Positions 16,617 through 38,727 of a DNA stretch of 41,500 bases are shown here, in pieces (the first letter of the stretch is position 1; each line of letters starts with the position of its first letter). The stretch is from contig JAUXCD010000001.1 in NCBI GenBank assembly GCA_030619085.1, positions 1-41,500 on the forward strand, written 5' to 3'. Position numbers and translations under genes: made by a program. Source of the DNA: Candidatus Zixiibacteriota bacterium. GTDB taxonomy: Bacteria > Zixibacteria > MSB-5A5 > GN15 > FEB-12. The notes under the pieces were generated by a model that was given only the letters and a program-made list of their open reading frames with translations, did no database searches and had not been told where the DNA came from.

Positions 16617-16728
16617 ATGCCAGGGACGGTCCGGTCGCTACAAGTTTTTATTTGCGTTTATCCCCAAAAACCTTGACATTTCAGCGTATTTGAAGGATAG
16701 GCACCAGTACATACCCTCGGAGATCAGC

Positions 16729-18051
16729 GTGTCACAAGACAGAAAAATAAGGACTTTTCATCTATCCACATACGGTTGTCAGATGAACCTGGCCGATTCA
16801 TCGACCCTCACAACCACCCTGATTACCCGGGGATACCGGCGCGTGGACGATGAAAAAGATGCCGATTTGCTCATCTTCAATACCTGCTCCGTACGTGAGA
16901 AAGCCGAGGAACGAGTGCTCGGTCGTCTGGGCGAGGTCTATCAATATAAAAAAAAGCGACCGCATATGAAAATAGCCGTCGTCGGGTGCATGGCCCAACG
17001 CCTGGGGGAGAAGCTGCGAGCCGAGGTGCCGTATGTGGATTTCGTGCTCGGCACCGACCGCGTTTTCGAGCTTCCGGACGTCATTGAAGGTATCGAGGGG
17101 ACATCGCCGGTGATGACGGCCTTCGGGCATGAGAATATGGACATGATCATGCCTTCGAAAGAAACCTCGTTTTCCGGTTTTGTCACGATCTCTCGCGGTT
17201 GCGACAACTACTGCACCTATTGTATCGTACCCTATGTCCGGGGTAAGGAGCGCGCCCACAGCGCCGACCAGATTGTCGGTGCCATCAGCAAGCTGGTCGA
17301 TGAGGGTGTGGCCGAGGTTACCCTGCTGGGACAGAATGTAAACAGCTATCGTTACGGCGACACCGATTTCCCGAGACTTCTTGAGCGCGTGGCGACCGGA
17401 ACCGGCATTCAGCGAATTCGCTACATGACGTCACACCCCAAAGACCTGTCGGAGCGCCTGGTTGACGTGATGGCCGAGCAACCGAAGGTCATGCAGCACA
17501 TTCACCTGCCGCTTCAGTCCGGATGCAACCGGATTCTCAGGAGGATGGGGCGAGTTTACACTATTGAACATTATCTCAAAACCGTAGAATACATCCGCAG
17601 TACGCTGGATTATGTATCGCTGACGACTGATCTGATTGTCGGTTTCCCTTCGGAGACGGACGAGGAGTACGAGCAAACGCTCGCGGCCGTACGCACTATT
17701 CGATTCGACGGCGCTTTCATGTTTCGCTACTCGGTGCGTCCGGGCACGACCGCGGCCCGCTTCGATGACGACGTAGCGGAAGAAGACAAGATCGATCGGC
17801 TCAACCGGCTGATCAAACTGCAGCAACAGATCGGCGAGGAGCAGAACCAGCGCGAGGTGAACCAGGTGCGCCACGGTATGGTTGAAGGGTTCTCACGACG
17901 CAGCGAGCAGTATTACCGCGCCCGCACCGAAGGCAACAAGATTGTCCTGTTCGAGAGCCAACGCCCTCTTGAATCGGGTACGGTGGTGCCGGTAAGGATA
18001 ACATCCGCGGATGCTTATACATTGCACGGCGATATGATGAGGGTAAACTGA
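16729..18051 (+). CDS. miaB: tRNA-i6A37 methylthiotransferase MiaB (radical SAM)
   Basis: The N-terminal UPF0004 cysteines are present (STYGCQMN, FNTCSVREKAE, VVGCMAQ). The radical-SAM motif is CDNYCTYC. A C-terminal TRAM-like domain is present. I chose GTG 16729, which has GGAG 6 nt upstream. The ORF-track TTG 16690 is less likely. Confidence 0.9.
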   Translation: MSQDRKIRTFHLSTYGCQMNLADSSTLTTTLITRGYRRVDDEKDADLLIFNTCSVREKAEERVLGRLGEVYQYKKKRPHMKIAVVGCMAQRLGEKLRAEVPYVDFVLGTDRVFELPDVIEGIEGTSPVMTAFGHENMDMIMPSKETSFSGFVTISRGCDNYCTYCIVPYVRGKERAHSADQIVGAISKLVDEGVAEVTLLGQNVNSYRYGDTDFPRLLERVATGTGIQRIRYMTSHPKDLSERLVDVMAEQPKVMQHIHLPLQSGCNRILRRMGRVYTIEHYLKTVEYIRSTLDYVSLTTDLIVGFPSETDEEYEQTLAAVRTIRFDGAFMFRYSVRPGTTAARFDDDVAEEDKIDRLNRLIKLQQQIGEEQNQREVNQVRHGMVEGFSRRSEQYYRARTEGNKIVLFESQRPLESGTVVPVRITSADAYTLHGDMMRVN

Positions 18052-20981
18052 TGGGAAGTTTCTCGGTCACGCTGATGGTGCCACTGGCGACTCTGACGGC
18101 ATTGCTATTTCTCGGAGTTAGATTGCGCTTTTTGACCTGCCGGGATACTCCGGGAAGATTCGCGTTCCTCAGCGGCTCTGTGTTTATGTTTGCCGCGGCG
18201 GTCTGGCAGGCGGTCAAGGCTCTGGCCGTTTACAATGTGTGGTTTATCGAGGGAGCTTACGGCTATATAGACATGGCGCAGTACATCGTGTTTCTGCTCG
18301 GTACTTTGCTGGTGGTGGTGGCGTTTTCGTTCTATGCCGATTTCTGGCAGATGCGAGCCGAGGAACTCTTCACCCACGATCAGAAACTGGCCCTCCTGAC
18401 GGATTTGCAGCGTGATGCCCGTGAACCGTACCATTTGCTCGAACTGCTCGATCTGGCTACCAAGGAGATCGTTTCCCACTTGCCGGACACTATGGGCGCC
18501 GTGTTTCTTGTCAACCGTACCCGTCGTCAGTTTGTGCTGGCGTCCTCAGCCGGGCTTACTCAGCAGGAGACGGCGTTTCTGGAACACTATCCGCTTGACC
18601 GCAATATTATCACCCAGTCCATCGATCTGGCCGAGCCGGTGATAACCGGCGGTTTCACCTTCATAGATCCCAATGGTAAAGCGGTCGAGTCACGCTTTCG
18701 TTCGTGTCTGGTGTTGCCGATGGTCTCCGGTTCGGAAAAAATCGGTGGTATCATCCTGTTTTCCCAGCAGGAGCGGCAATTCACGCGGGCCGAGGTGCGC
18801 TTCCTCTTACCGGTGGCCGAATGGCTCGCCGAAAAAATAAACTCGGCCCGTCTCTCGCGCGAACTCACCCAGGTCCGGGGCGAGATCGACAAGTCGCAGG
18901 CCCGCTACAGCGAATTCACCTCCCGGCTGTTGTCAGCTACCGGAGGGAACGAACTCGGCGACACGGTCGAGGCGTTTTGCCAGGGGATTGTCGGTCTGGC
19001 GTCGAGTCAGTCCGTGCATCTTTTTGGTCTGGTCAGCGGTGCGTTGCGCTTTTACGGCGGCAGCGAACCTCTTGCGGATTTGTCGGAGAACTACCGCACC
19101 GCCCTGATTGAAGCTCTCGACAAAAACAAGCCGCTGATAATCAATCAGGAAGCGGTCAGCGAAGAGGGCCGGTCCTATATATCTTTGTCGTCACTGATCT
19201 TCCCGGTACGCAGCCGGGAAGGACGCGATGCGCTGCTTCTTCGCAAGGAATCCTCACCGTTTAAGGTCGGGGATCAGGACCTGAAAGCGCTCGGCGTCTT
19301 CGCCGGTATGGCGCAGCTCGTGCTGAAACTTAACGAGAGCAACCGCCTCAATGTCACACGCCGGAAAGGATTCGAGCAGGTCATCCAGTTGCTTCGCTTT
19401 GAAGATCTGCAGCCGTTTTCCGATAGTCCCGGTCATCTCCTGGAGCATCTGGCCTCGTGTTTGCCGCGTAAGTCGATGTTGGTGTCGCTCGTTAAGCAGC
19501 CGGACGCTTCGTTTGTGGCGGCCGATGCCCGGCATGCTGACAAAAACTCGCTGGGCGACATCCGGGTTTATCCCGGCGAGGGCGAGGTCGGCCGCGTGGT
19601 CACCTCGATGCAGCCGAGATTTGCCTCCGGGCGCAGCCGAGTTTCCAAAGCACTTGAGTCCTACGATATGTCCAACCGCGAGGCCATCCTGAAGCTGTTG
19701 GGGGAGAAGGGCGTGCCCTCGATGATGGCTACCTGCCCGGTTGCCTGCGCGGGCGACGTGGTCGGCGCCGTAATGCTGTTTGTGTTCGATGTTGCCGAGG
19801 ACCAACATAGTGAATGGGAGCGTGTTATTACGCTGATTGTCGGTCTTTACTCCATGGGCCTGACTGTTGAACAGATGCAACAACGTCAGCTTCCGGCTGA
19901 AGGTGCCTCAATCGAGGGACTGGGGCCGGTGGTCAACCAGTTGAACAATTACCTCTCAGCCATAATCGGCAACGCCGAACTGGGGTTGAATCGTGATGAT
20001 ATCACCGGGGAAGTGAAAAGTCAGTTCCGCAGTGTTCTTGCCGAGGCTGAGCAGGCGGCCGGTTACCTGAAGAAATCGCTGGGAGAGCTATCCGCTCCCG
20101 AGGAATATACGCCGCCGCCGGTTACCGATGACACTCAGGACCTGGCGCCCACCGTCGAGCACGTGATTGCGAGTAGTCACATCTCGGATAATCTCTACAT
20201 GATCGCTGGCAGTCCCCGAGAGATCATTTTCAAGTCGACTGCTTCCGGCGTGGCGCTGCTTGGAGATTCTAACATCAAGATATTATTCGAGGAGGCTCTG
20301 GAATCGTTCGCGGCGTTGGCGGAAACTGATGATGTAATCACCGTGTCGGTGTATGAATCCGGCGATTATGTCTATTTGGATATCTCCCGTCATAAGAAAA
20401 ACTTCCCGCCCGTGGAATCCGTGGCCGGTTTTGGAAACTACGAGCCTCCGGACGAGGTCCTCAAGTACCGGCCATCAGATGCTTTCCTGGAGCATCTTCA
20501 TAAACAGGGTGCTTATTCCTTTGACCGGTTTAGCCGCACGCCGTCGTACTTGTCTTTCAAATTTCCTCTTCGGGTTCACAAACCCTCCGGCCCGGTCAAG
20601 CCGCGCTCGACCATCAGGATTCTGGCCATTGACGACCAGGCTATCATCCTGGATCTGCTCACGGCCATGTGCCAGTCGCTGGGCTATGAGATTAAGACCG
20701 CCTCCACCGGCCAGGAGGGGATAAGACTGGCCTCGGAATCGGCTTTTGATGTCGTGTTTACGGATCTGGCAATGCCCGGTATGTCTGGTCTGGAAGTGGC
20801 CAGAAAGATCAAGGCGCTACACGCCGATATACCGATTATTCTGCTGACCGGCTGGGAAGCCAGTGTCGACAGCGACCGCCTGGTCGAATCGGGTATCACG
20901 GAAGTCCTTTACAAGCCCTTCCGTATCGAGCAACTGACCGATGTCATCAAGTCGGTGGTTCAGTCCGGGTCGGTATCATAG
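18051..20981 (+). CDS. Membrane-anchored multi-GAF signalling protein with His-less DHp-like helix, degenerate HATPase-like region and intact receiver (REC) domain
   Basis: 976 aa. Its ATG overlaps the miaB stop (TGATG). It has 3-4 N-terminal TM helices and about three GAF-like segments (for example GAVFLVNRTRRQFVLASSAG...LVLPMVSGSEKIGGIILFSQQE). The DHp-like helix is VVNQLNNYLSAIIGNAELGL, with N-Q where H-E is expected. There is no recognisable N, G1 or G2 box. The C-terminal REC has DD, FTDLAMPGMSG, LLTGW and KPF. Confidence 0.75.
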   Translation: MGSFSVTLMVPLATLTALLFLGVRLRFLTCRDTPGRFAFLSGSVFMFAAAVWQAVKALAVYNVWFIEGAYGYIDMAQYIVFLLGTLLVVVAFSFYADFWQMRAEELFTHDQKLALLTDLQRDAREPYHLLELLDLATKEIVSHLPDTMGAVFLVNRTRRQFVLASSAGLTQQETAFLEHYPLDRNIITQSIDLAEPVITGGFTFIDPNGKAVESRFRSCLVLPMVSGSEKIGGIILFSQQERQFTRAEVRFLLPVAEWLAEKINSARLSRELTQVRGEIDKSQARYSEFTSRLLSATGGNELGDTVEAFCQGIVGLASSQSVHLFGLVSGALRFYGGSEPLADLSENYRTALIEALDKNKPLIINQEAVSEEGRSYISLSSLIFPVRSREGRDALLLRKESSPFKVGDQDLKALGVFAGMAQLVLKLNESNRLNVTRRKGFEQVIQLLRFEDLQPFSDSPGHLLEHLASCLPRKSMLVSLVKQPDASFVAADARHADKNSLGDIRVYPGEGEVGRVVTSMQPRFASGRSRVSKALESYDMSNREAILKLLGEKGVPSMMATCPVACAGDVVGAVMLFVFDVAEDQHSEWERVITLIVGLYSMGLTVEQMQQRQLPAEGASIEGLGPVVNQLNNYLSAIIGNAELGLNRDDITGEVKSQFRSVLAEAEQAAGYLKKSLGELSAPEEYTPPPVTDDTQDLAPTVEHVIASSHISDNLYMIAGSPREIIFKSTASGVALLGDSNIKILFEEALESFAALAETDDVITVSVYESGDYVYLDISRHKKNFPPVESVAGFGNYEPPDEVLKYRPSDAFLEHLHKQGAYSFDRFSRTPSYLSFKFPLRVHKPSGPVKPRSTIRILAIDDQAIILDLLTAMCQSLGYEIKTASTGQEGIRLASESAFDVVFTDLAMPGMSGLEVARKIKALHADIPIILLTGWEASVDSDRLVESGITEVLYKPFRIEQLTDVIKSVVQSGSVS

Positions 20982-21055
20982 CGAAAAGTCCATAGACGGT
21001 TAATCTTACCGGCCTTTTTCCGATAATAATATTAATTGGAAAGGGCTTACTGTAT

Positions 21056-22381
21056 ATGGACAAGATTACAATCATTGAAGAGATCAGACAAAACAAGCAA
21101 CTTTTGTCCCTGCCGCAGGTTCTGTCGGAGATTCTCGAAGAGGTTGGGCGCGAAGATTTTACCTCCGACTCCCTGGCGACCATCATCCTCAAAGACCCTT
21201 CCCTGACGGGTAACATTCTCAGATTGGCCAATTCGGCATTTTATCAGCGGTTCAACGAAATCAAGACGGTCAATCAGGCGATCTCCGTCCTGGGCGTCAC
21301 CACCGTCAAATGCCTGGCCCTTTCGACCACTGTCTTTCACCCTGATAAAATAGCGGGCGAATCCGGTGTTGAGCCCAGAGATTTTTTCAACTATGTCCTG
21401 GGTATTGCTGCCGCCTCCGAGAAGATCGCCCAAATGATTGGCTACGAGTCTCCGGAAGAAGCGCTTATTGCCGGGCTCCTCAACGATATCGGAGTGATGT
21501 ATTTCCTGCATCATTATCCGAGAGAGTACCGCAAGATTATTACCCGTGACGACAACCGGCAGTCGCTGGTCGATGCGGAGCGGGAAGTGCTCGGCATTGA
21601 CCATTGCGAGGTCGGCTCGCATTTGGCTGAAACGTGGAAGTTGCCGGACTATATTGTCAAATCAATTACGGACCATCACAGTCTGACTGACATTGCACAG
21701 AGTGAAACTCTGTCAAACATTGTTCGGCTGGCGGTCCTTCTGGCCAAAGACAACTTCTCCGGGCAGTATTACGGTCTGGAAGAACGACTGGACGCCATCC
21801 ACCGTATCTCCGGTGCCCTATCGCTGTCCAAGAGCAAGGTCGATGAAATATCGTTCTCGCTGATGACCTGGTCGATTGAAATGGCTGAATATCTCGGTCT
21901 CGATATTGGCAACTATGAGGAAATGCTCGCCAAGGCCAACAAGGAGATATGGCAGTCGTACCTGACAATTGAGAACCTCTTCAAGGAACGGCAGGAACTC
22001 AGCCGCAAGTTGCTGGTCGAGGAACGAAACCGGGGCGCCATCGAATCAAAGAATATCGCTATGGCCACCCTGTCGCATTACCTCAATAACGCCGCCATGG
22101 CCATCTACGGCCGTTCTCAGATAATGAGAATGCTCAGTGACAAGGGCAACAGTGAAAAGCTAATCGAGCAGTTCCCGATATCGCTGGACACCATTGACAA
22201 TGCTGTAAAGAAGATCGTGGCGGTACTGGAAGAAATGAAAAAGATCTCTCCGATTGACGAGATTGATTTCTACAATGTTTCCAAGGCGATGAATATCGAT
22301 GATCGGATCAATGAGCGTATGTCGGAAATGATCGAAGATTCCCGGTGGAACGCTCAGGTTGAAGTACTCGAACAGGATTAA
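21056..22381 (+). CDS. HDOD-domain signalling protein with C-terminal coiled-coil and HisKA-like helix, no ATPase domain
   Basis: 441 aa. The HDOD signature is LLSLPQVLSEILEEV...IILKDPSLTGNILRLANSAFY...AISVLGV...GLLNDIGV. After a coiled-coil comes IAMATLSHYLNNAAMAIYGRSQIM, which is DHp-like and has a His. Only ~90 aa follow, with no N/G1/G2 boxes. Confidence 0.75.
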   Translation: MDKITIIEEIRQNKQLLSLPQVLSEILEEVGREDFTSDSLATIILKDPSLTGNILRLANSAFYQRFNEIKTVNQAISVLGVTTVKCLALSTTVFHPDKIAGESGVEPRDFFNYVLGIAAASEKIAQMIGYESPEEALIAGLLNDIGVMYFLHHYPREYRKIITRDDNRQSLVDAEREVLGIDHCEVGSHLAETWKLPDYIVKSITDHHSLTDIAQSETLSNIVRLAVLLAKDNFSGQYYGLEERLDAIHRISGALSLSKSKVDEISFSLMTWSIEMAEYLGLDIGNYEEMLAKANKEIWQSYLTIENLFKERQELSRKLLVEERNRGAIESKNIAMATLSHYLNNAAMAIYGRSQIMRMLSDKGNSEKLIEQFPISLDTIDNAVKKIVAVLEEMKKISPIDEIDFYNVSKAMNIDDRINERMSEMIEDSRWNAQVEVLEQD

Positions 22382-22425: not shown

Positions 22426-23625
22426 ATGTTGAAATTTCTAACGGCCGGTGAGTCGCACGGTCCGCAGTTGACGGCGATTCTCGACGGCATGCCCGCCGGG
22501 TTGCGCCTCGACCGCGAGCAAATCGATTTTCAACTGGGCCGCCGCCAGAAGGGGTACGGACGGGGCGGACGGATGAAAATTGAGAAAGATTGCGTCAAGA
22601 TACTATCCGGTGTCCGACATTCAGTCACGCTGGGCAGCCCGGTCACGCTGGTTATTGAAAACAAAGACTGGGCCAACTGGAAGCGTATTATGGATCCTTT
22701 GGCGCCGCCGCCAAAAAGGCTCAGCGAACGGGAGAAACCGCGCGCCCGGGAGACTTTCTGCCCGCGCCCCGGTCACGCCGACCTGGCCGGTGGAATCAAA
22801 TACAATCATCACGATCTTCGAAACGTCCTGGAACGGGCCTCAGCTCGGGAGACCGCCGCCCGGGTTGCGGTTGGGGCGCTCTGCCGGCAACTTCTCGAGC
22901 ATTTCAATGTCCGGCTAGCTTCTCACGTAGTTCAGATCGGCGCTGTGAAACTTACTGGAAAAGCCCGACACGTTGAATTGACCGCGAACATTGATGCCGC
23001 GGAAAAGTCCGAAGTGCGCTGCATAGACCCGGCCACGTCGGCCAGGATGGTCAAGGCCATCAAAGCCGCCCGGAAGGAGCGTGATTCGCTCGGCGGAGTG
23101 GTCGAAGTGATAGTGCGCGGCCTGCCTGTCGGATTGGGGGGATATTCGCAGTGGACCGACCGGTTGGACGGACTTCTGGCCCAGGCCATGATGGCGATTC
23201 AGTCGGTTAAAGCGGTCGAAATCGGTGCCGGCGCGAAACTGGCCGGTAAACGCGGCTCGCAGGCGCATGATGAAATCTACCTCGATACCAATGCCAATTC
23301 ACCCGGGAAAGGCTTCGTCCGACGTTCCAATCATGCCGGAGGTCTCGAAGGTGGTATCACTAACGGGGAGGATATTATCATACGCGTGGCCGCCAAGCCG
23401 TTGTCCACTTTGAACCGCCCGCTGCAATCGGTGGATGTTCGTACCGGTCAGCCTCGAGACGCGATGGTGGAGCGTACCGATACCTGTGTCGTTCCGGCGC
23501 TGGCTGTGATCTGTGAAGCGGCCGCGGCCTTTGTCCTGGCCGATGCCTTTCTGAGGAAATTCGGTTCGGATAATCTGGCCGAAACCACACGCAATTACGA
23601 ATCGTTCCTCACCGCCGAATACTGA
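22426..23625 (+). CDS. aroC: Chorismate synthase
   Basis: The motifs are MLKFLTAGESHGPQL, GRRQKGYGRGGRM, RPGHADLAG and SARETAARVA. Confidence 0.92.
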   Translation: MLKFLTAGESHGPQLTAILDGMPAGLRLDREQIDFQLGRRQKGYGRGGRMKIEKDCVKILSGVRHSVTLGSPVTLVIENKDWANWKRIMDPLAPPPKRLSEREKPRARETFCPRPGHADLAGGIKYNHHDLRNVLERASARETAARVAVGALCRQLLEHFNVRLASHVVQIGAVKLTGKARHVELTANIDAAEKSEVRCIDPATSARMVKAIKAARKERDSLGGVVEVIVRGLPVGLGGYSQWTDRLDGLLAQAMMAIQSVKAVEIGAGAKLAGKRGSQAHDEIYLDTNANSPGKGFVRRSNHAGGLEGGITNGEDIIIRVAAKPLSTLNRPLQSVDVRTGQPRDAMVERTDTCVVPALAVICEAAAAFVLADAFLRKFGSDNLAETTRNYESFLTAEY

Positions 23626-23725
23626 TGGCTAATCGGACCGTCAAAAGCTGCTTTTCTATATCATGTAAAAGGTTGCCCCCCGCCGGACGATTGCGTACTT
23701 TGACCTCAAAATGGAGGAACTCGCC

Positions 23726-25225
23726 ATGACTTTCAATTATATCACTGGACCACTGGAAGAGATCAAAGTCGATACGATTGTGCTCTTCGTACCGGCCTAC
23801 AAGAAGACAACCAATCCGAGCCTTAAACGGCTCGACAAAGCCTCTGGTATGGCTGTAACCACGCTGTTGGATTCGGAAGAATTCACCGGGAAACAGGGTG
23901 AAAACGCCGTTCTGTATTCGCCCGATGGTTACCAGTCGCGGCGCATTATCCTGGCCGGTCTGGGGGAGAAGAGCGACCTTTGCCCCGATAGTTTCCGCCA
24001 GGCGGCCGGAACCGTCTCCCGTCACAAGGGCCTGTCCGGGTCTGCCAAAGCAGCCTTTTATTTCGACAAGTATGACAACGAGGCCTTTTTTCAGGCTGCT
24101 ATCGAGGGCTATCTGCTGGGTGCGTATACACTGCTCGAATATAAAACCGGCGAGGGCAAGGTCGATAAAAGGAAAATCAAGAGCCTCACTTTTGCCGTTG
24201 CCGGCGCAAAATCGTTGAAAAAGATGACGCGGGCAATCGAGCGGGGACAGATTATCGCTGAGGGGCAGTTGATGGTTCGTGATCTGGCTTCGGCTCCGGC
24301 CAACATGTTGACGCCCCGAATTCTGGCAGCTAAGGCCGAAAAGCTGGCCAGGACGCACAAACTATCGTGCAAGGTGCTCGATGAAAAACAGATTGCCAAG
24401 GAGAAAATGGGCGCTTTGCTGTCAGTCGCCAGGGGGTCAAAAGAGCCGCCCCGCTTTATCGCCTTGCAGTACAAGGGCGGTCGGGCCGGACAGGCGCCGG
24501 TGGTTCTGGTTGGCAAAGGCGTGACGTTTGACGCCGGTGGCATCTCGCTCAAGCAGGCGTTGAACATGCACGAGATGAAAGGGGATATGACCGGCGCGGC
24601 GGTAGTGCTGTCAACTATCGTGACGGCCGCCCGTCTGAAATTGCCGATAAACCTCGTGTCACTTATTCCCGCCACGGAAAACCTGCCCTCCGGTACGGCC
24701 ACTCGGCCGGGTGACATAATCACCTCGCGCAAGGGGCTGACGATTGAGGTCATCAACACCGACGCTGAGGGTCGGTTGATCCTGGCCGACGCTCTCGATT
24801 ATGCCAACGAATACAAACCGCAGGCGGTGTTGGATATTGCCACTCTGACCGGCGCGACGCTATACAGCCTGGGCTATGCCGGTGCTCCCATATTCAGCAA
24901 CCGGCGCACCATCATCAGCCAATTGCAGGCCGCTGCGGGGGCGACTGCTGAGCGCGTCTGGGAATTCCCCATCTGGGATGACTACCGCGAAGGAATGAAA
25001 TCGAGAATCGCCGACTTGGTCAACTCTGGTGGCCGGGACGCCGGTACCTGCAAGGCGGCGGCTTTTCTGGAGAATTTCATCGGTGACTGGCCTTGGGGGC
25101 ATATTGATATTGCTTATGTGGATCTCGAACCCTCAGGCAAGCCGTATACCCCAAGAGGGATTACCGGTATCGGCCTGAGATTGCTGATTGAGTTGCTTTC
25201 CCATTGGAAAAAACCCGGCAAGTAA
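23726..25225 (+). CDS. pepA: Leucyl aminopeptidase (M17)
   Basis: The M17 catalytic region reads LVGKGVTFDAGGISLK, MKGDMTGAA, NTDAEGRLILADAL and ATLTGA. I set the start at ATG 23726, which has GGAGG 8 nt upstream. The ORF-track start is 23711. Confidence 0.9.
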   Translation: MTFNYITGPLEEIKVDTIVLFVPAYKKTTNPSLKRLDKASGMAVTTLLDSEEFTGKQGENAVLYSPDGYQSRRIILAGLGEKSDLCPDSFRQAAGTVSRHKGLSGSAKAAFYFDKYDNEAFFQAAIEGYLLGAYTLLEYKTGEGKVDKRKIKSLTFAVAGAKSLKKMTRAIERGQIIAEGQLMVRDLASAPANMLTPRILAAKAEKLARTHKLSCKVLDEKQIAKEKMGALLSVARGSKEPPRFIALQYKGGRAGQAPVVLVGKGVTFDAGGISLKQALNMHEMKGDMTGAAVVLSTIVTAARLKLPINLVSLIPATENLPSGTATRPGDIITSRKGLTIEVINTDAEGRLILADALDYANEYKPQAVLDIATLTGATLYSLGYAGAPIFSNRRTIISQLQAAAGATAERVWEFPIWDDYREGMKSRIADLVNSGGRDAGTCKAAAFLENFIGDWPWGHIDIAYVDLEPSGKPYTPRGITGIGLRLLIELLSHWKKPGK

Positions 25226-25243: not shown

Positions 25244-25283
25244 AAAGAAAAAGGCCACCCCAAAAGGGTGGCCTTGTTTCTTC
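25244..25283. terminator. Bidirectional rho-independent terminator between convergent pepA and the TolB-like gene
   Basis: Perfect 10-bp stem aaggccaccc (25251-60) pairs with gggtggcctt (25266-75). The loop is 5 nt. An A-rich run lies upstream and a T-rich run downstream. Confidence 0.8.
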
Positions 25284-34704: not shown

Positions 34705-36663
34705 ATGAATTTCAGGCCAGGTTTTCTTGTCAGGTTAAGTCACCTGATATTGATTCAAGTCATCTTTGTGTTCGCCGCGTTGGCCCTGATAATGTTCTTT
34801 TCGGGAGGCGACGGGCCAACCGACGGTGGATTGAAAATCACCAACCAGAAGATTCAGCCCCTGGCGGCGAGATTGTCGCGAATCATTAGCGAAGAAAGAT
34901 TAGATCTTGAAAAATCTTCTGTCGACCCCACCCTTCAGGGGCGGCTTAACAGCGTCTTTGTCGAAGACGATGAAATTCTCAAGGCCAAGGTGTTTCTGGA
35001 GACCTCGGATCATCGACTACTCCACGTGATAAGCTATGATAGCCCGGATTTGAAAGTGGCGAGCGATCTGACCGAAGAGGTTCTGTCCGTTCTGGCTGAC
35101 CAGAAAGTGGTGGAGTATGCCCTGCATCAGGACCGGGGGGGACTCAGCAAAGTGTTTTACAGTTCGCAGTATGTGATTCATTACTGTCCTTTTGATGTCG
35201 ATGACCAGTTGACTGGTCTTCTCGTAACACTGTCCGGGCATGACTACCTCATCTCCAGCCGAACCGACCTGCAGTACGCCTTGCTTCTGCTTTTTCTGGT
35301 GGCGGCGCTCATCAGTCTGCTGACGGTCTATCTTATCTCCAACCGTTTCAAAGATCCCCTTGAGAAACTGATCCACGGCTTCGAGAAGACGGCCCAGGGG
35401 GAACTGTATCACATGATGGAACCTGACGGTGACCAGGAACTGCGTCAACTGGCTACGGCTTTCAATACAATGTCCCAGAGTCTGTGGGACAATCATCAGA
35501 GGCTCAAAGGCTTCAACATTCGTCTTCAGCGCTCCAATAAGCTGCTGTTTGAATCTCAGGCGTTTTTGGCGGCGACGATCGACAACTCGCCGGATTGCAT
35601 CGTTGCCACCACGCCGGACGGAAGCGTGGTGCTGTTCAACGGCAAGGCGTCCTATGATTTCGGTTATGACGATGACGCGATCGTAGGCATGGGTATTGAC
35701 ACGCTCTTTACCCAGTCGCTGACCCAATCGATGGCGGCCCTGGCTCTCGAGAAGGGAATAGCTGCGGGAGAGATGCTGGGGAAACGACGCGACGGGACTA
35801 TCTTTCCTGTTTACCTGACGGCTGCTCCCATTATGGATACCGAGTCACGGGTTATTGCGTTGCTGTATATTATCAAAGACATCTCGGAAAGTAAGAACTT
35901 CCAGGACATGATGATCCGGATTGACCGCTATTACACTCGTGGCGAGATGGCCGGGGACATTGCGCATGAAATCAACAACTACCTGGCCGTGCTGTCGGGT
36001 AACCTGGAACTGATACCGATGTTCTTAAAGAAGGGGAACACCGAGAAGATTGACAGCAAGCTCGAACTGATGAAAAGCACGGTCGATCGTATTGTCCGCT
36101 TTGCCGATGGTTTGATGGATCCCAACCAGGGTGAGGCTCATTTTGAAGATGCGGATATCAACCAGGCAATTGAAAATATCGTCGCCTTCCTCAAGCCGCA
36201 AAACCGCTTTGACAACGTGCATATCGGCACCTGTCTGGCCCATGAAATTCCGCTGGTGGAATTTGACATTGCTCAAATTCAGCAACTTATGGTTAACCTG
36301 ATATATAACGCGGCCGATGCTCTCGAGGTGGTCGAAGAAGATAAGCGTATTTCGATTTCCACTTCGACCTGTACCATCAGGGACGAAAAGGCGGTGCGCA
36401 TTTCTGTCGAGGACAACGGTCCTGGCGTCCCCGAGGAGAAACGCGAACTGCTGTTCGAAAAGCGCTTTACCACCAAGAGGAAGGGACACGGTATCGGTTT
36501 GATTACCTGCCGCCACATAGTCGAAGCTCACAATGGCAATATCGGCTACGAACACACCGGCGGCGCCTCGTTCTATTTCGAGTTGCCGGTGCGGCGTCCG
36601 AAAGTCGCTTCGGGCAGCCAGGTGGCTTTCTTGGAACCGGCCGCATCTCCCGTAACCGACTAA
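34705..36663 (+). CDS. Sensor histidine kinase (TM-sensor-TM-HAMP-PAS-HisKA-HATPase)
   Basis: 652 aa. It has a HAMP-like region (NRFKDPLEKLIHGFEKTAQGEL) and a PAS domain (IVATTPDGSVVLFNGKA...KRRDGTIFPV). The H-box is IAHEINNYLAVLSGNLEL, the N-box MVNLIYNAADAL, G1 DNGPGV and G2 GHGIGL. Confidence 0.88.
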   Translation: MNFRPGFLVRLSHLILIQVIFVFAALALIMFFSGGDGPTDGGLKITNQKIQPLAARLSRIISEERLDLEKSSVDPTLQGRLNSVFVEDDEILKAKVFLETSDHRLLHVISYDSPDLKVASDLTEEVLSVLADQKVVEYALHQDRGGLSKVFYSSQYVIHYCPFDVDDQLTGLLVTLSGHDYLISSRTDLQYALLLLFLVAALISLLTVYLISNRFKDPLEKLIHGFEKTAQGELYHMMEPDGDQELRQLATAFNTMSQSLWDNHQRLKGFNIRLQRSNKLLFESQAFLAATIDNSPDCIVATTPDGSVVLFNGKASYDFGYDDDAIVGMGIDTLFTQSLTQSMAALALEKGIAAGEMLGKRRDGTIFPVYLTAAPIMDTESRVIALLYIIKDISESKNFQDMMIRIDRYYTRGEMAGDIAHEINNYLAVLSGNLELIPMFLKKGNTEKIDSKLELMKSTVDRIVRFADGLMDPNQGEAHFEDADINQAIENIVAFLKPQNRFDNVHIGTCLAHEIPLVEFDIAQIQQLMVNLIYNAADALEVVEEDKRISISTSTCTIRDEKAVRISVEDNGPGVPEEKRELLFEKRFTTKRKGHGIGLITCRHIVEAHNGNIGYEHTGGASFYFELPVRRPKVASGSQVAFLEPAASPVTD

Positions 36664-36705: not shown

Positions 36706-38727
36706 ATGCCAAAACCGTCTGAAAAAGCATCTTACCGGCGCCAACGCTATCTCCCCGTAATCTTCATCGCGCTGGCGATTGTCGTCTTCATTATCACCCT
36801 GGTCGGCATAAGAGAGAGTCGCACGGACTCCCTGCAGCTTCTGGTCAGGCAGGGAACGTCACTCACCGAGGCCCTGGCCCAGGCCGCCGAGAACGCCATC
36901 ATCTCAGAATCATTCTTTGACTACCTGGTGCACAAGCGATATAGCGAACTGGTCATAGACGTAGCCTCCTATGGCCTCGAACCCTCCGAACGGCAGCTTT
37001 CCCGTCTGGCCCTTGATCACGGCATCTATAGCATCCACGTGTTCGGGCTTGATTCCACCATTCGAGTCAGCGGCGTGGCCCGCCCGGCCGGGGCGAGTCT
37101 TCCGGATTATGTGGTCGAGGAAGTCGCTTTGCTTTTAGCTAATCCCGAAACGAATTACGTCTTGTTGCTTGATGCAGGCGACACTCCGGGCGAAGCCATC
37201 CATTACTATCTGAAAATCACCAATGATCTGCAGCGGGTGGTGATTATCGTCGCCGATGCCCTTTACTACACCGACGCCCTGAAGAAAACCCAAATCGGCT
37301 ACCTGGCTCAGAACATGTCCCGCGAAAAAGGGGTGGAGTATGTCATCTACCAGTCCAAACAGGGAATTGTGTTCTCTTCCAGAACCACCGGAGAACTGCT
37401 CGCAATTGACAGCGATCCTTTCCTGACCGAAGCTCTTCGGAGCGATACTATCTCCAATCGCATCTACGACTTTCAGGACAAGACGGTCCTGGAACTGGTG
37501 CGGCCGTTTTCCACCGAAGACTACCCGTTTGGTCTGTTGCGGGTGGGATTGTCGCTTGAACGCTACTACTCGGTGTCACGCGGCTTCAACATTCAGATGG
37601 TGACCCTTTCGGGCGTTCTGTTCGTGCTGGTTGTTGTCGTGCTTCTATATTTGAGCGGCCGGGAGAAGCGACAGGAGATTGCCCGCAAATTCGTCAGGAT
37701 AAAATCGGTGACGGATAAGATCTTCGATGAAATGCGCACCGGCGTGGCGGTGGTAGACAAACAGGGCACGATCACCCAGGCTAATAAAGCATTTGGGAAT
37801 ATCCTGGGATCATCGGATGTTGTCGGTAAACCGTGGTTGTCGGTGATACCGGCCAATGACCCGGTGTTAATGGGCATCCTCACTCCCGAGGGGCGAAGTG
37901 TTGAAAACGAAACCACCAATGAGTTTAAGTACGTACGCAAGACCTTGCTGGTGTCATCCTCGTCGGTCGAGCTTGAAGGCGACGAGACCGGCGGCATCGT
38001 CGTAGTGGTCTATGACATCACGCGACTAAAAGAATTCGAGGCGAAGTCGGTTCGCAAGGAGCGGCTTTCGGAACTGGGCAATCTGGCCGCGGCGGTGGCC
38101 CATGAGATTCGCAACCCGCTTAACACCATCTCAATCGCTGTCCAGAGACTGGCGTCAGAATTTACGCCAAAGGAGAATGCCGAAGAGTATCACAGTTTCA
38201 CCGGTCAGATCCGATCTGAAACGAAGCGTCTCAATGATATCATCACCCGCTTTCTGGCGCTGGCGCGGGACGAGAAACAGCGCCTAACGAAGGTCAACCT
38301 GAAAGAGCTTGTTGACGAGACCTGTCAGCTTTTGAAGCCGGAGGCGGATAAGCTCGGGATCGAACTGAAGGGTTATCGTGATCCGAAAGCCGTAATAACG
38401 GCCGACCCGGCCGGTCTCAAGCAGATTCTTTCCAACCTGTTCAACAACGCCAAGGAAGCACTGGCCGGCAAGCCGGGACGGGTTGTAATTGATGTGACTC
38501 GTGAGGAGGACATAGTGACCTTGGCGTTCTTCGATGACGGTCCCGGCATACCAAGGAATGTCCGCGACAAAATCTTCACGCCGTACTACACGACCAAAAA
38601 GTCAGGAACCGGTCTGGGGCTATCGACGGTGCACAAAATCGTGACCGATGCCGGGGGAGAGATCAGGATGGAGACCAGTCACTGGGGCGGGGCACGGTTC
38701 GTGATGGAATTTCCCCGAGAAAAATAA
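36706..38727 (+). CDS. Sensor histidine kinase (large extracytoplasmic domain-PAS-HisKA-HATPase)
   Basis: 673 aa. Two TM helices flank a ~270-aa sensor domain. A PAS domain is present (RTGVAVVDKQGTITQANKAF). The H-box is VAHEIRNPLNTI, the N-box LSNLFNNAKEAL, G1 DDGPGI and G2 GTGLGL. Confidence 0.88.
   Translation: MPKPSEKASYRRQRYLPVIFIALAIVVFIITLVGIRESRTDSLQLLVRQGTSLTEALAQAAENAIISESFFDYLVHKRYSELVIDVASYGLEPSERQLSRLALDHGIYSIHVFGLDSTIRVSGVARPAGASLPDYVVEEVALLLANPETNYVLLLDAGDTPGEAIHYYLKITNDLQRVVIIVADALYYTDALKKTQIGYLAQNMSREKGVEYVIYQSKQGIVFSSRTTGELLAIDSDPFLTEALRSDTISNRIYDFQDKTVLELVRPFSTEDYPFGLLRVGLSLERYYSVSRGFNIQMVTLSGVLFVLVVVVLLYLSGREKRQEIARKFVRIKSVTDKIFDEMRTGVAVVDKQGTITQANKAFGNILGSSDVVGKPWLSVIPANDPVLMGILTPEGRSVENETTNEFKYVRKTLLVSSSSVELEGDETGGIVVVVYDITRLKEFEAKSVRKERLSELGNLAAAVAHEIRNPLNTISIAVQRLASEFTPKENAEEYHSFTGQIRSETKRLNDIITRFLALARDEKQRLTKVNLKELVDETCQLLKPEADKLGIELKGYRDPKAVITADPAGLKQILSNLFNNAKEALAGKPGRVVIDVTREEDIVTLAFFDDGPGIPRNVRDKIFTPYYTTKKSGTGLGLSTVHKIVTDAGGEIRMETSHWGGARFVMEFPREK

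Follow-up and report, generated by a model that had tools for sequence, protein, structure and literature searches.

A histidine pseudokinase with a conserved receiver and an adjacent HDOD protein with a DHp histidine in Zixibacteria

What is left for two adjacent signalling proteins to do if one has lost the histidine and the ATP-binding motifs of its kinase core, and the other has kept a histidine and ends without an ATPase domain? This question is raised by two genes, here called gene 1 and gene 2, in a stretch of 41,500 nucleotides (positions 1 to 41,500 of contig JAUXCD010000001.1, hereafter the window). The source is a metagenome-assembled genome of 2.5 Mb, divided over 252 contigs and about 94% complete, and the host is identified as a Zixibacteria bacterium by the named homologues of both genes, which are nearly all labelled "Candidatus Zixiibacteriota". 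An earlier reading of this DNA, made from the letters alone (the sequence-only reading), had described the pair as a split or heteromeric signalling module. According to the analysis presented here, gene 1 is a histidine pseudokinase, and gene 2 is predicted to resemble histidine phosphotransferases of the dimerization and histidine phosphotransfer (DHp) type. The genes are separate open reading frames (ORFs) at the coordinates given in the earlier reading, with 74 bp and a stop codon between them:

18051..20981, + strand: gene 1, 976 amino acids, pseudo-hybrid histidine kinase with a membrane anchor, three GAF or GAF-like domains and a receiver
21056..22381, + strand: gene 2, 441 amino acids, HDOD domain, coiled coil and DHp hairpin with His, without an ATPase domain

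The kinase-derived core of gene 1

The protein encoded by gene 1 was divided into the following segments, where CA stands for the catalytic and ATP-binding domain and REC for the receiver:

18051..18365, + strand: N-terminal membrane region, residues 1-105 (AlphaFold2 helices 2-24, 36-56 and 69-123)
18435..18785, + strand: GAF domain 1, residues 129-245 (Pfam GAF_2, GAF and GAF_3, E 2e-10; AlphaFold2)
18963..19250, + strand: GAF-like domain 2, residues 305-400 (alpha/beta pattern in AlphaFold2; Foldseek matches to tandem-GAF and phytochrome structures; Pfam negative)
19431..19784, + strand: GAF-like domain 3, residues 461-578 (AlphaFold2; weak match to Pfam SpoVT_C, which is GAF-like, at 555-580)
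19920..20084, + strand: pseudo-DHp hairpin, residues 624-678, motif VVNQLNNYLSAIIGNAEL (hhalign against the genome's own kinases)
20142..20570, + strand: pseudo-CA domain, residues 698-840, HATPase_c homologue (hhalign, family consensus)
20616..20969, + strand: REC, residues 856-973 (Pfam Response_reg, E 4e-25; receiver matches in the PDB)

For comparison with the central part of gene 1, we built a kinase reference profile from 20 true kinases that this genome encodes, taking the DHp-CA region of each. The profile of residues 615-850 aligned to this reference over 214 columns with an hhalign probability of 98.1% (E 7e-13). In the alignment, N629-Q630 (codons 19935-19940, of which N629 is 19935-19937) are placed under the H-E of AHEINNYL. 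The two kinases of the window that the sequence-only reading had used for comparison do have the H-boxes AHEINNYL and AHEIRNPL. The column of the N-box Asn is occupied by S752 in gene 1 and by Arg in most of its relatives, the column of the G1 motif DxGxG by R780-H-K-K-N, and the G2 motif is without a counterpart. Neither HisKA nor HATPase_c was matched in gene 1 by Pfam (for HATPase_c, at E<=1), a genome-wide HATPase_c scan gave 30 matches of which none was located in gene 1, and a PDB profile search with the gene 1 family alignment returned receiver matches only, the kinase-like core not being visible by sequence in that search. Judged from the hhalign comparison, the core is a true histidine-kinase homologue with a DHp-CA fold that has neither the His nor the ATP-binding motifs, and these motif states predict that it has no autokinase activity.

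Relatives of gene 1 number in the hundreds and are of about equal length. Two alignments were used, one of 113 relatives from which the residues were counted by script, and one of 101 relatives (alignment A1) for the receiver and the AlphaFold2 model. The position of the phospho-acceptor His is occupied by Asn in 110 of the 113 relatives and by Gly or Leu in a few; Asn is found even in syntenic orthologues of 27% identity, and His was never seen at this position in the 80 loci of the synteny sample described below. The His+1 position is variable (R/E/Q/K), while N632 is present in 113/113 relatives and N633, at the phosphatase-specific His+4 position, in 112/113. The ATP motifs of the pseudo-CA domain have been replaced by a conserved family set, YLDISRH(R/K)(K/R)NFPPVE, VAGFG, RPxD and PSYLSFKFP. 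The five residues of the receiver pocket (D861, D862, D905, T933 and K955) are invariant in the 101 relatives.

The mean identity of the DHp and pseudo-CA segments (49% and 48%) is similar to that of the GAF domains (33-56%). Because of this similarity, and because the replaced positions are themselves conserved, the pseudo-core is indicated to be a maintained domain rather than a decaying one, and by these alignments the inactivation of the kinase core is ancestral and kept under selection. As a His-less histidine-kinase homologue that is clade-wide and selected, gene 1 is a histidine pseudokinase of the kind represented by DivL and PsmA.

The only Pfam matches in gene 1 were to GAF (residues 131-260) and Response_reg (857-966), and NCBIfam likewise identified a GAF domain and a receiver only. 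In the AlphaFold2 model (pLDDT 85.5), three transmembrane (TM) helices are followed by three GAF-like alpha/beta domains with long helices between them, and then by a DHp hairpin, an alpha/beta domain and the REC domain. The kinase-like fold was confirmed with Foldseek, for which the best matches to the model were WalK, the hybrid kinase ShkA and full-length phytochrome kinases from bacteria (bacteriophytochromes) and plants. The Pfam threshold was reached by GAF domain 1 alone; the assignment of GAF-like domains 2 and 3 is taken from the model. Conserved residues in the membrane region include R24, G35, W52, Y61, W64, F65 and Y70, and no Pfam family matched this region. A TM domain like that of the ethylene receptors was considered and rejected, as there was no family match and the TM columns conserved in at least 80% contain no Cys or His. 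Searches with defence-system models (PADLOC) gave noise-level matches only.

The histidine-bearing hairpin of gene 2

In gene 2, two segments were distinguished:

21095..21745, + strand: HDOD domain, residues 14-230 (Pfam HDOD, E 2e-53; PDB 3hc1 and 3m1t)
21914..22246, + strand: coiled coil and DHp hairpin, residues 287-397, motif MATLSHYLNNAAMAIYGRSQ (AlphaFold2 helices 287-362 and 366-397; hhalign)

In the AlphaFold2 model, a 76-residue helix (287-362) is followed by a return helix (366-397). Pfam HisKA was matched below threshold in this region (14 bits, residues 334-401), and residues 290-441 aligned to the kinase reference profile with an hhalign probability of 90.9% (E 1e-6), placing H341 (22076-22078) on the acceptor His. 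The first DHp helix is the best-conserved part of the protein (80% identity), and H341, Y342, N344 and N345 are each invariant in 117/117 relatives. The His+1 position is thus taken by Y342 in place of the kinase-specific acidic residue, and the phosphatase-specific His+4 position by N345. No HATPase_c domain was matched in gene 2 by Pfam, and the chain ends 44 residues past the hairpin. A PDB profile search with the gene 2 family alignment returned HDOD matches only, the DHp part not being visible by sequence, and a word-based search with residues 285-441 retrieved only gene 2's own family.

An exhaustive profile search delimited this family to about 55 clusters at 50% identity, with proteins of 425-450 amino acids that carry the motif T(L/F)SHY(I/L/V)NN. 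The next-best matches were longer HDOD-HisKA-HATPase_c kinases, some of them with a receiver and most with a canonical H-box of the AH(E/D)xxN type. Since these longer relatives are complete kinases, the profile comparison indicates that gene 2 is a CA-less descendant of HDOD kinases in which the loss of the CA domain was accompanied by a Glu to Tyr change at His+1. With the CA domain absent and His+1 not acidic, gene 2 does not qualify as a complete HDOD-histidine kinase. A hairpin with a conserved His and no ATP-binding domain resembles the DHp-type histidine phosphotransferases, and phosphotransfer is the activity predicted for it.

The HDOD assignment (PF08668) is firm, with 181 bits against a gathering cut-off of 22.9, and it is supported by sequence as well as fold matches to solved HDOD structures. 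Two iron ions are bound by five His and one Asp in the structure 3HC1 from Geobacter (PMC12075610). D144, H183, H207 and H208 are kept in gene 2, which amounts to a partial site only. The residue at position 113, corresponding to the first metal-binding His of 3HC1, is Tyr across the gene 2 family, and the HD motif reads ND in gene 2 (N143; 21476-21490, residues 141-145), with His in 45/77 relatives. Gene 2 would therefore seem a poor candidate for binding two iron ions in the manner of 3HC1.

Among close HDOD relatives (P0336, P0354, P0360, P0367 and P0351), the domain is located upstream of GGDEF and, in one case, in the order ParA-HDOD-GAF-HisKA-HATPase_c. The role of HDOD in these proteins is that of a module for input or transmission, not for output.

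Most of what the sequence-only reading had stated about the two proteins stands. The coordinates of gene 1, its TGATG overlap with the upstream gene miaB and its layout of TM helices, three GAF domains, DHp-like and CA-like segments and REC agree with the ORFs, the sequence, Pfam and AlphaFold2. The alignment by hhalign with the 20 kinases of the genome itself likewise gave N-Q in place of H-E and no intact N, G1 or G2 motif, and the per-residue alignment suggested as a check brought no canonical His or ATP-binding residues to light in gene 1. The claim that REC keeps its phospho-acceptor residues can be extended to the 101 relatives, and the composition of gene 2 (HDOD, coiled coil, His-bearing DHp and no catalytic domain) was confirmed by Pfam, hhalign and AlphaFold2. 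The motifs are also consistent with the prediction that neither protein would autophosphorylate alone.

The gene pair and its variants across Zixibacteria

Genes 1 and 2 are located in a co-directional cluster that contains:

16690..18051, + strand: miaB, tRNA methylthiotransferase (Pfam UPF0004, Radical_SAM and TRAM), directly upstream of gene 1 also in related loci
22426..23625, + strand: aroC, chorismate synthase, the conserved downstream neighbour (Pfam, E 1e-119)
23711..25225, + strand: pepA-like leucyl aminopeptidase, last gene of the cluster (conserved position; named from sequence features only)
25251..25275, strand.: bidirectional terminator-like hairpin downstream of the pepA-like gene, the first strong one after miaB

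We examined the synteny of gene 2 at 80 genome loci, of which 67 were testable for gene 1 and 61 for aroC. The order M1 peptidase-miaB-gene 1-gene 2-aroC-pepA recurs across the loci, which are nearly all labelled or classed as Zixibacteria. At 60 of the 67 testable loci, gene 1 shares the strand of gene 2 and ends no more than 500 bp before it, and the gene pair has therefore passed the test of synteny in relatives that the sequence-only reading had called for; aroC lies within 400 bp of gene 2 at 58 of 61 loci. The adjacency of the pair extends from close relatives down to orthologues of 27% identity for gene 1 and 42-46% for gene 2. In a search of 251 genomes of the phylum, a strong gene 1 match was obtained in every genome of the same family or the same order, and gene 2-type proteins were identified in 220, with up to six matches per genome and two to four in most genomes that have any. 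No fused receiver-HDOD form of the two genes was seen among the 80 loci. At one locus (L033), gene 1 is missing from the cluster and miaB abuts gene 2.

Conserved order can also arise if the two proteins are independent neighbours, held together by a stable housekeeping cluster and each having other partners. The entire six-gene order is conserved and not the pair alone, relatives of gene 2 are found in different surroundings and also where the genome gives no gene 1 match, gene 2 is unchanged in lineages where gene 1 has lost its DHp or pseudo-CA segment, and no covariation of rates was seen between the two proteins (see below). Against this, both genes are adjacent and on the same strand wherever both were detected, down to the identities given above, a receiver and a DHp domain are canonical interacting domains, and REC-HDOD is a recurrent fused architecture. 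The L033 locus, having lost gene 1 from the cluster, argues that the adjacency is not forced by the flanking genes. We consider independent neighbours unlikely.

The natural variants of gene 1 indicate which parts of the pair are constant. In genus g26 (L055, L056 and L088), gene 1 has no DHp hairpin and keeps the pseudo-CA domain and an intact receiver, and the His of gene 2 is unchanged. In genera of family f4 (L086 and L087), the TM-GAFx3 part of gene 1 is fused straight to the receiver, without the DHp and pseudo-CA segments; gene 1 is still located between miaB and gene 2, and gene 2 reads TLAHY(M/I)NN. Constant across these lineages are TM-GAF-REC followed by HDOD-DHp(His), which therefore argues against an obligate mixed DHp bundle and against the pseudo-CA domain acting as the kinase of gene 2. 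A partnership of the receiver with the DHp hairpin of gene 2 would agree with these constant segments. Two further variants were rejected as such. The gene 1 of genome G191 appeared to be split, with the N-terminal part next to miaB and the pseudo-CA-REC part next to gene 2 (L090 and L091, separated by 395 kb). At the end of each copy there is a masked run with identical sequence on its flanks, which points to an artefact of assembly or masking. A suspected miaB-gene 1 fusion in G234 turned out to be two separate genes.

Two additional HDOD-coiled-coil-DHp paralogues are encoded in the same genome. The first (C240:2520-3863, + strand) reads FNHYINN and so keeps the His, and it follows a 410-amino-acid ORF similar to RNase_H_2 (PF13482), a pairing that is repeated on two unrelated contigs (L081 and L082). 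In the second (C210:6190-7494, - strand), the corresponding motif is AQHLNN, where the His is displaced by one residue.

These variants bear directly on a true split kinase, in which ATP or another phosphodonor would occupy a non-canonical pocket of the pseudo-CA domain and this domain would then act in trans on the His of gene 2, perhaps within a mixed DHp bundle. Such a division would fit the complementary losses, gene 1 being CA-like without a His and gene 2 having a His without a CA domain, and also the selection on the pseudo-CA domain with its conserved basic patch SRH(R/K)(K/R)N at the position of the G1 box. Nevertheless, all ATP-contacting motifs have been replaced in gene 1, the His of gene 2 is retained in the lineages without DHp or without both DHp and pseudo-CA, and it is also kept with no gene 1 nearby in the C240 paralogue, in the divergent relatives beside the RNase_H_2-like gene and in the CA-less protein P0366. 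Moreover, His+1 of gene 2 is Tyr and not the acid required for HisKA autophosphorylation. A split kinase is therefore highly improbable. Of the heteromeric module put forward in the sequence-only reading, the complementary losses hold, while an obligate DHp partnership has been weakened by the deletions in g26 and f4, by gene 2 proteins that occur without gene 1 and by the full HDOD kinases among the relatives.

Other sources of a catalytic domain were also considered. The short HATPase_c ORFs of the genome, inspected by eye as candidates for an orphan CA domain, looked like GyrB, a HisKA_3-type kinase, and anti-sigma kinases that are RsbW-like or STAS-linked. No complete HDOD kinase that could serve as a heterodimer partner of gene 2 was found in the genome, the candidate on C173 being a stand-alone HDOD protein.

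The first base of gene 1 is also the last base of miaB, the stop and start codons being combined in TGATG at 18049-18053. The same one-base overlap apparently recurs in several other genera (L002, L006, L008, L015, L020 and L051), as estimated from tblastn end and start coordinates. By this overlap, a signalling gene would be translationally coupled to a gene for tRNA modification. No terminator-like hairpin of note was found inside the cluster between miaB and the hairpin at 25251-25275. Farther downstream in the window, two complete PAS histidine kinases are encoded in tandem (34705-36663 and 36706-38727), with a thioredoxin-reductase-like gene and a citrate synthase gene as neighbours and no response regulator adjacent to them. 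The sequence-only reading had named them as a possible source of phosphate for the pair, but the analysis brought up nothing that connects them with it. The H-box of the first, AHEINNYLAVLSGNLEL, is of the same subtype as the pseudo-H-box of gene 1. DNA nearly identical to the locus is present in at least 20 cold-seep and marine-sediment metagenomes, and the 24 sequencing runs in which the locus was present are all DNA metagenomes.

Proposed function and comparison with known systems

Starting from the observed architectures, residue states, conservation and synteny, we infer a contact between gene 1 and gene 2, a direction of transfer and a role as sink or relay. In the scheme that we tentatively favour, although we rate it somewhat below an even chance, the pair is an ATPase-free accessory module of two-component systems that moves or removes phosphoryl groups, in which the receiver of gene 1 exchanges phosphate with the His of gene 2 and another kinase feeds the module. 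Gene 1 would be a former membrane-bound, GAF-sensing hybrid histidine kinase, the core of which was inactivated long ago by the change from His to Asn, the loss of the adjacent acid and the replacement of the ATP motifs, and the dead core would have been retained as a dimeric transmitter or docking module ahead of a phospho-competent receiver. Gene 2 would be a former HDOD-histidine kinase minus its ATPase, keeping the DHp hairpin and the acceptor His.

In four HisKA kinases, the acidic residue at His+1 was needed for kinase activity only and the Thr or Asn at His+4 for phosphatase activity only (PMC3510030). Both DHp segments keep the Asn at His+4 and have no conserved acidic residue at His+1, and neither protein has an ATP site. 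The pair would therefore be restricted to two reactions, His-Asp phosphotransfer between H341 of gene 2 and D905 of gene 1 and hydrolysis of the receiver phosphate. The pairing of these two partners is proposed because a receiver is the canonical partner of a DHp domain and because receiver-HDOD fusions recur elsewhere, as in P0361 and the MmoQ structures. The module might be supplied with phosphoryl groups by small phosphodonors or by one of the complete kinases, of which the genome has roughly 20, and signals received by the TM and GAF domains of gene 1 and by the HDOD domain of gene 2 may set the amount of phosphate that is passed on or drained.

Several points weigh against this scheme. 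The analysis brought to light no direct sign that the two proteins interact, and no phosphodonor for the pair. A comparison of evolutionary rates, based on branch lengths per domain on a fixed topology for 39 genomes, gave no signal of covariation between gene 1 and gene 2 (rho -0.20 to 0.17), although the comparison carried little information, with rho of only 0.08-0.28 within proteins. Family f5 has gene 2, while several of its genomes have no gene 1 match and the rest only a borderline one (E about 1e-31), and gene 2-type proteins without gene 1 imply that the His has a role that is independent of gene 1. In the f4 variants (L086 and L087), the receiver has changed from DD to AD and from T to A, and phosphorylation is seemingly dispensable there. 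Also, an intact receiver Asp is not needed in the hybrid pseudokinase PsmA (PMC12963549).

The last two points lead to a scaffold that functions independently of phosphorylation, in which gene 1 resembles DivL or PsmA in its action, its dead core and receiver being binding surfaces that change partners upon a signal from the GAF domains or the membrane, and gene 2 is either one of the partners or a separate adaptor similar to SadB. In PsmA, both the receiver Asp and the H-box are dispensable (PMC12963549), SadB shows that an HDOD adaptor can function without a ligand, the pseudo-CA domain of gene 1 has a strongly conserved surface motif of its own at the position of the ATP site, and the receiver pocket is partly degenerate in f4. 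A scaffold would not account as readily for the five active-site residues that are invariant in 101 receivers or for the His that is invariant in 117 gene 2 proteins, in which the pair differs from PsmA with its varying H-box and lost D/ExxT/N motif, and the phosphatase Asn is kept in both DHp helices. We regard a pure scaffold as rather unlikely, if a serious alternative to the phosphotransfer module.

A wider version of the phosphotransfer module is more speculative and, in our view, doubtful. Here, most of the sampled Zixibacteria lineages would possess a self-contained, ATPase-free His-Asp device that is coupled to miaB in a housekeeping operon and serves as a signal-gated phosphate sink or relay, draining or redirecting other two-component pathways; the complementary losses would then represent a division of labour and not decay.

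Only a few model bacteria have so far provided examples of histidine pseudokinases and of kinase-like phosphotransferases. The gene 1 family is large and old, with a fixed Asn, a retained phosphatase Asn and a CA-less, His-bearing partner gene next to it, and its natural deletion variants, one without DHp and one without DHp and pseudo-CA, already indicate which parts are dispensable. If the pair does have a transfer or sink function, it would provide a clean natural case of separated kinase and phosphatase determinants in HisKA proteins and a role for HDOD as an input module; if not, it would be one further pseudokinase scaffold. In either case, the current annotations ("response regulator" for gene 1 and "HDOD domain-containing protein" for gene 2) miss the kinase-derived cores.

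We compared the pair to systems described previously. The sequence-only reading knew of no described system with such a division of labour, which is too strong a statement in view of PsmA (PMC12963549), RedE (PMC2755868) and PhyT (PMC5898713). PsmA of Streptomyces venezuelae shares with gene 1 the hybrid layout sensor-DHp-CA-like-REC, the absence of an acceptor His, ATP motifs that are not conserved and a receiver Asp that is kept, and it is likewise conserved in one clade and in its gene context (PMC12963549). It differs in having PAS domains and a long disordered region, in being cytoplasmic and binding DivIVA, and in that the replacement of the His is variable and the D/ExxT/N motif lost (PMC12963549). 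Gene 1, in turn, is distinguished by the fixed Asn, the near-invariant Asn at His+4, the TM and three GAF domains, the pseudo-CA motif set and the adjacent gene for a His-bearing DHp protein. As far as their descriptions go, the likeness between PsmA and gene 1 is at the level of domains only.

DivL of Caulobacter still has a CA domain that can be recognised as such and is not known to contain a receiver, whereas gene 1 has lost every ATP motif and contains a receiver. Like gene 1, DivL is a histidine-kinase homologue with a replaced His, in this case by Tyr, and its core is described as having been repurposed to read the state of a response regulator (PMC4211667, 10.1101/812529). A precedent for the role of gene 2 is RedE of the RedCDEF system in Myxococcus xanthus, a His-containing kinase-like protein that does not autophosphorylate, receives phosphate from the receiver of RedD and dephosphorylates RedF (PMC2755868). 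RedE is encoded in one operon with the kinase RedC (PMC2755868), whereas gene 2 has no kinase next door and carries an HDOD domain.

Among HDOD proteins, the HDOD-HisKA-HATPase_c kinases (P0342, P0344, P0355 and P0392) share with gene 2 an N-terminal HDOD domain followed by DHp. They differ from it by the presence of a CA domain and an AHE(L/F/V)NN box, whereas gene 2 ends after DHp and reads SHYLNN. In the REC-HDOD regulators (MmoQ, PDB 3ljx and 3p3q; P0361), a receiver precedes HDOD, as it would if the C-terminus of gene 1 were joined to the N-terminus of gene 2; these regulators are single chains without DHp after HDOD, whereas the two domains are encoded here by separate genes with 74 bp between them.

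Spo0B and ChpT are phosphotransferases with a dimeric DHp four-helix bundle and an acceptor His that have no known ATP-dependent kinase activity and shuttle phosphate between receivers. PhyT is of the same kind and is reported to be a kinase-like histidine phosphotransferase (PMC5898713). All three keep a degenerate CA-like domain after DHp. Such a domain is missing from gene 2, which begins with HDOD, and the degenerate CA-like domain is found in its neighbour, gene 1. The subfamily-2 ethylene receptors of plants (ETR2 and EIN4) combine TM helices, a GAF domain, a degenerate histidine-kinase domain without the His and the ATP motifs, and a receiver, which is an analogy to gene 1 in layout only. 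The building principles of gene 1 and gene 2 are thus already known from other systems, and what is new here is their pairing and its spread across the sampled Zixibacteria.

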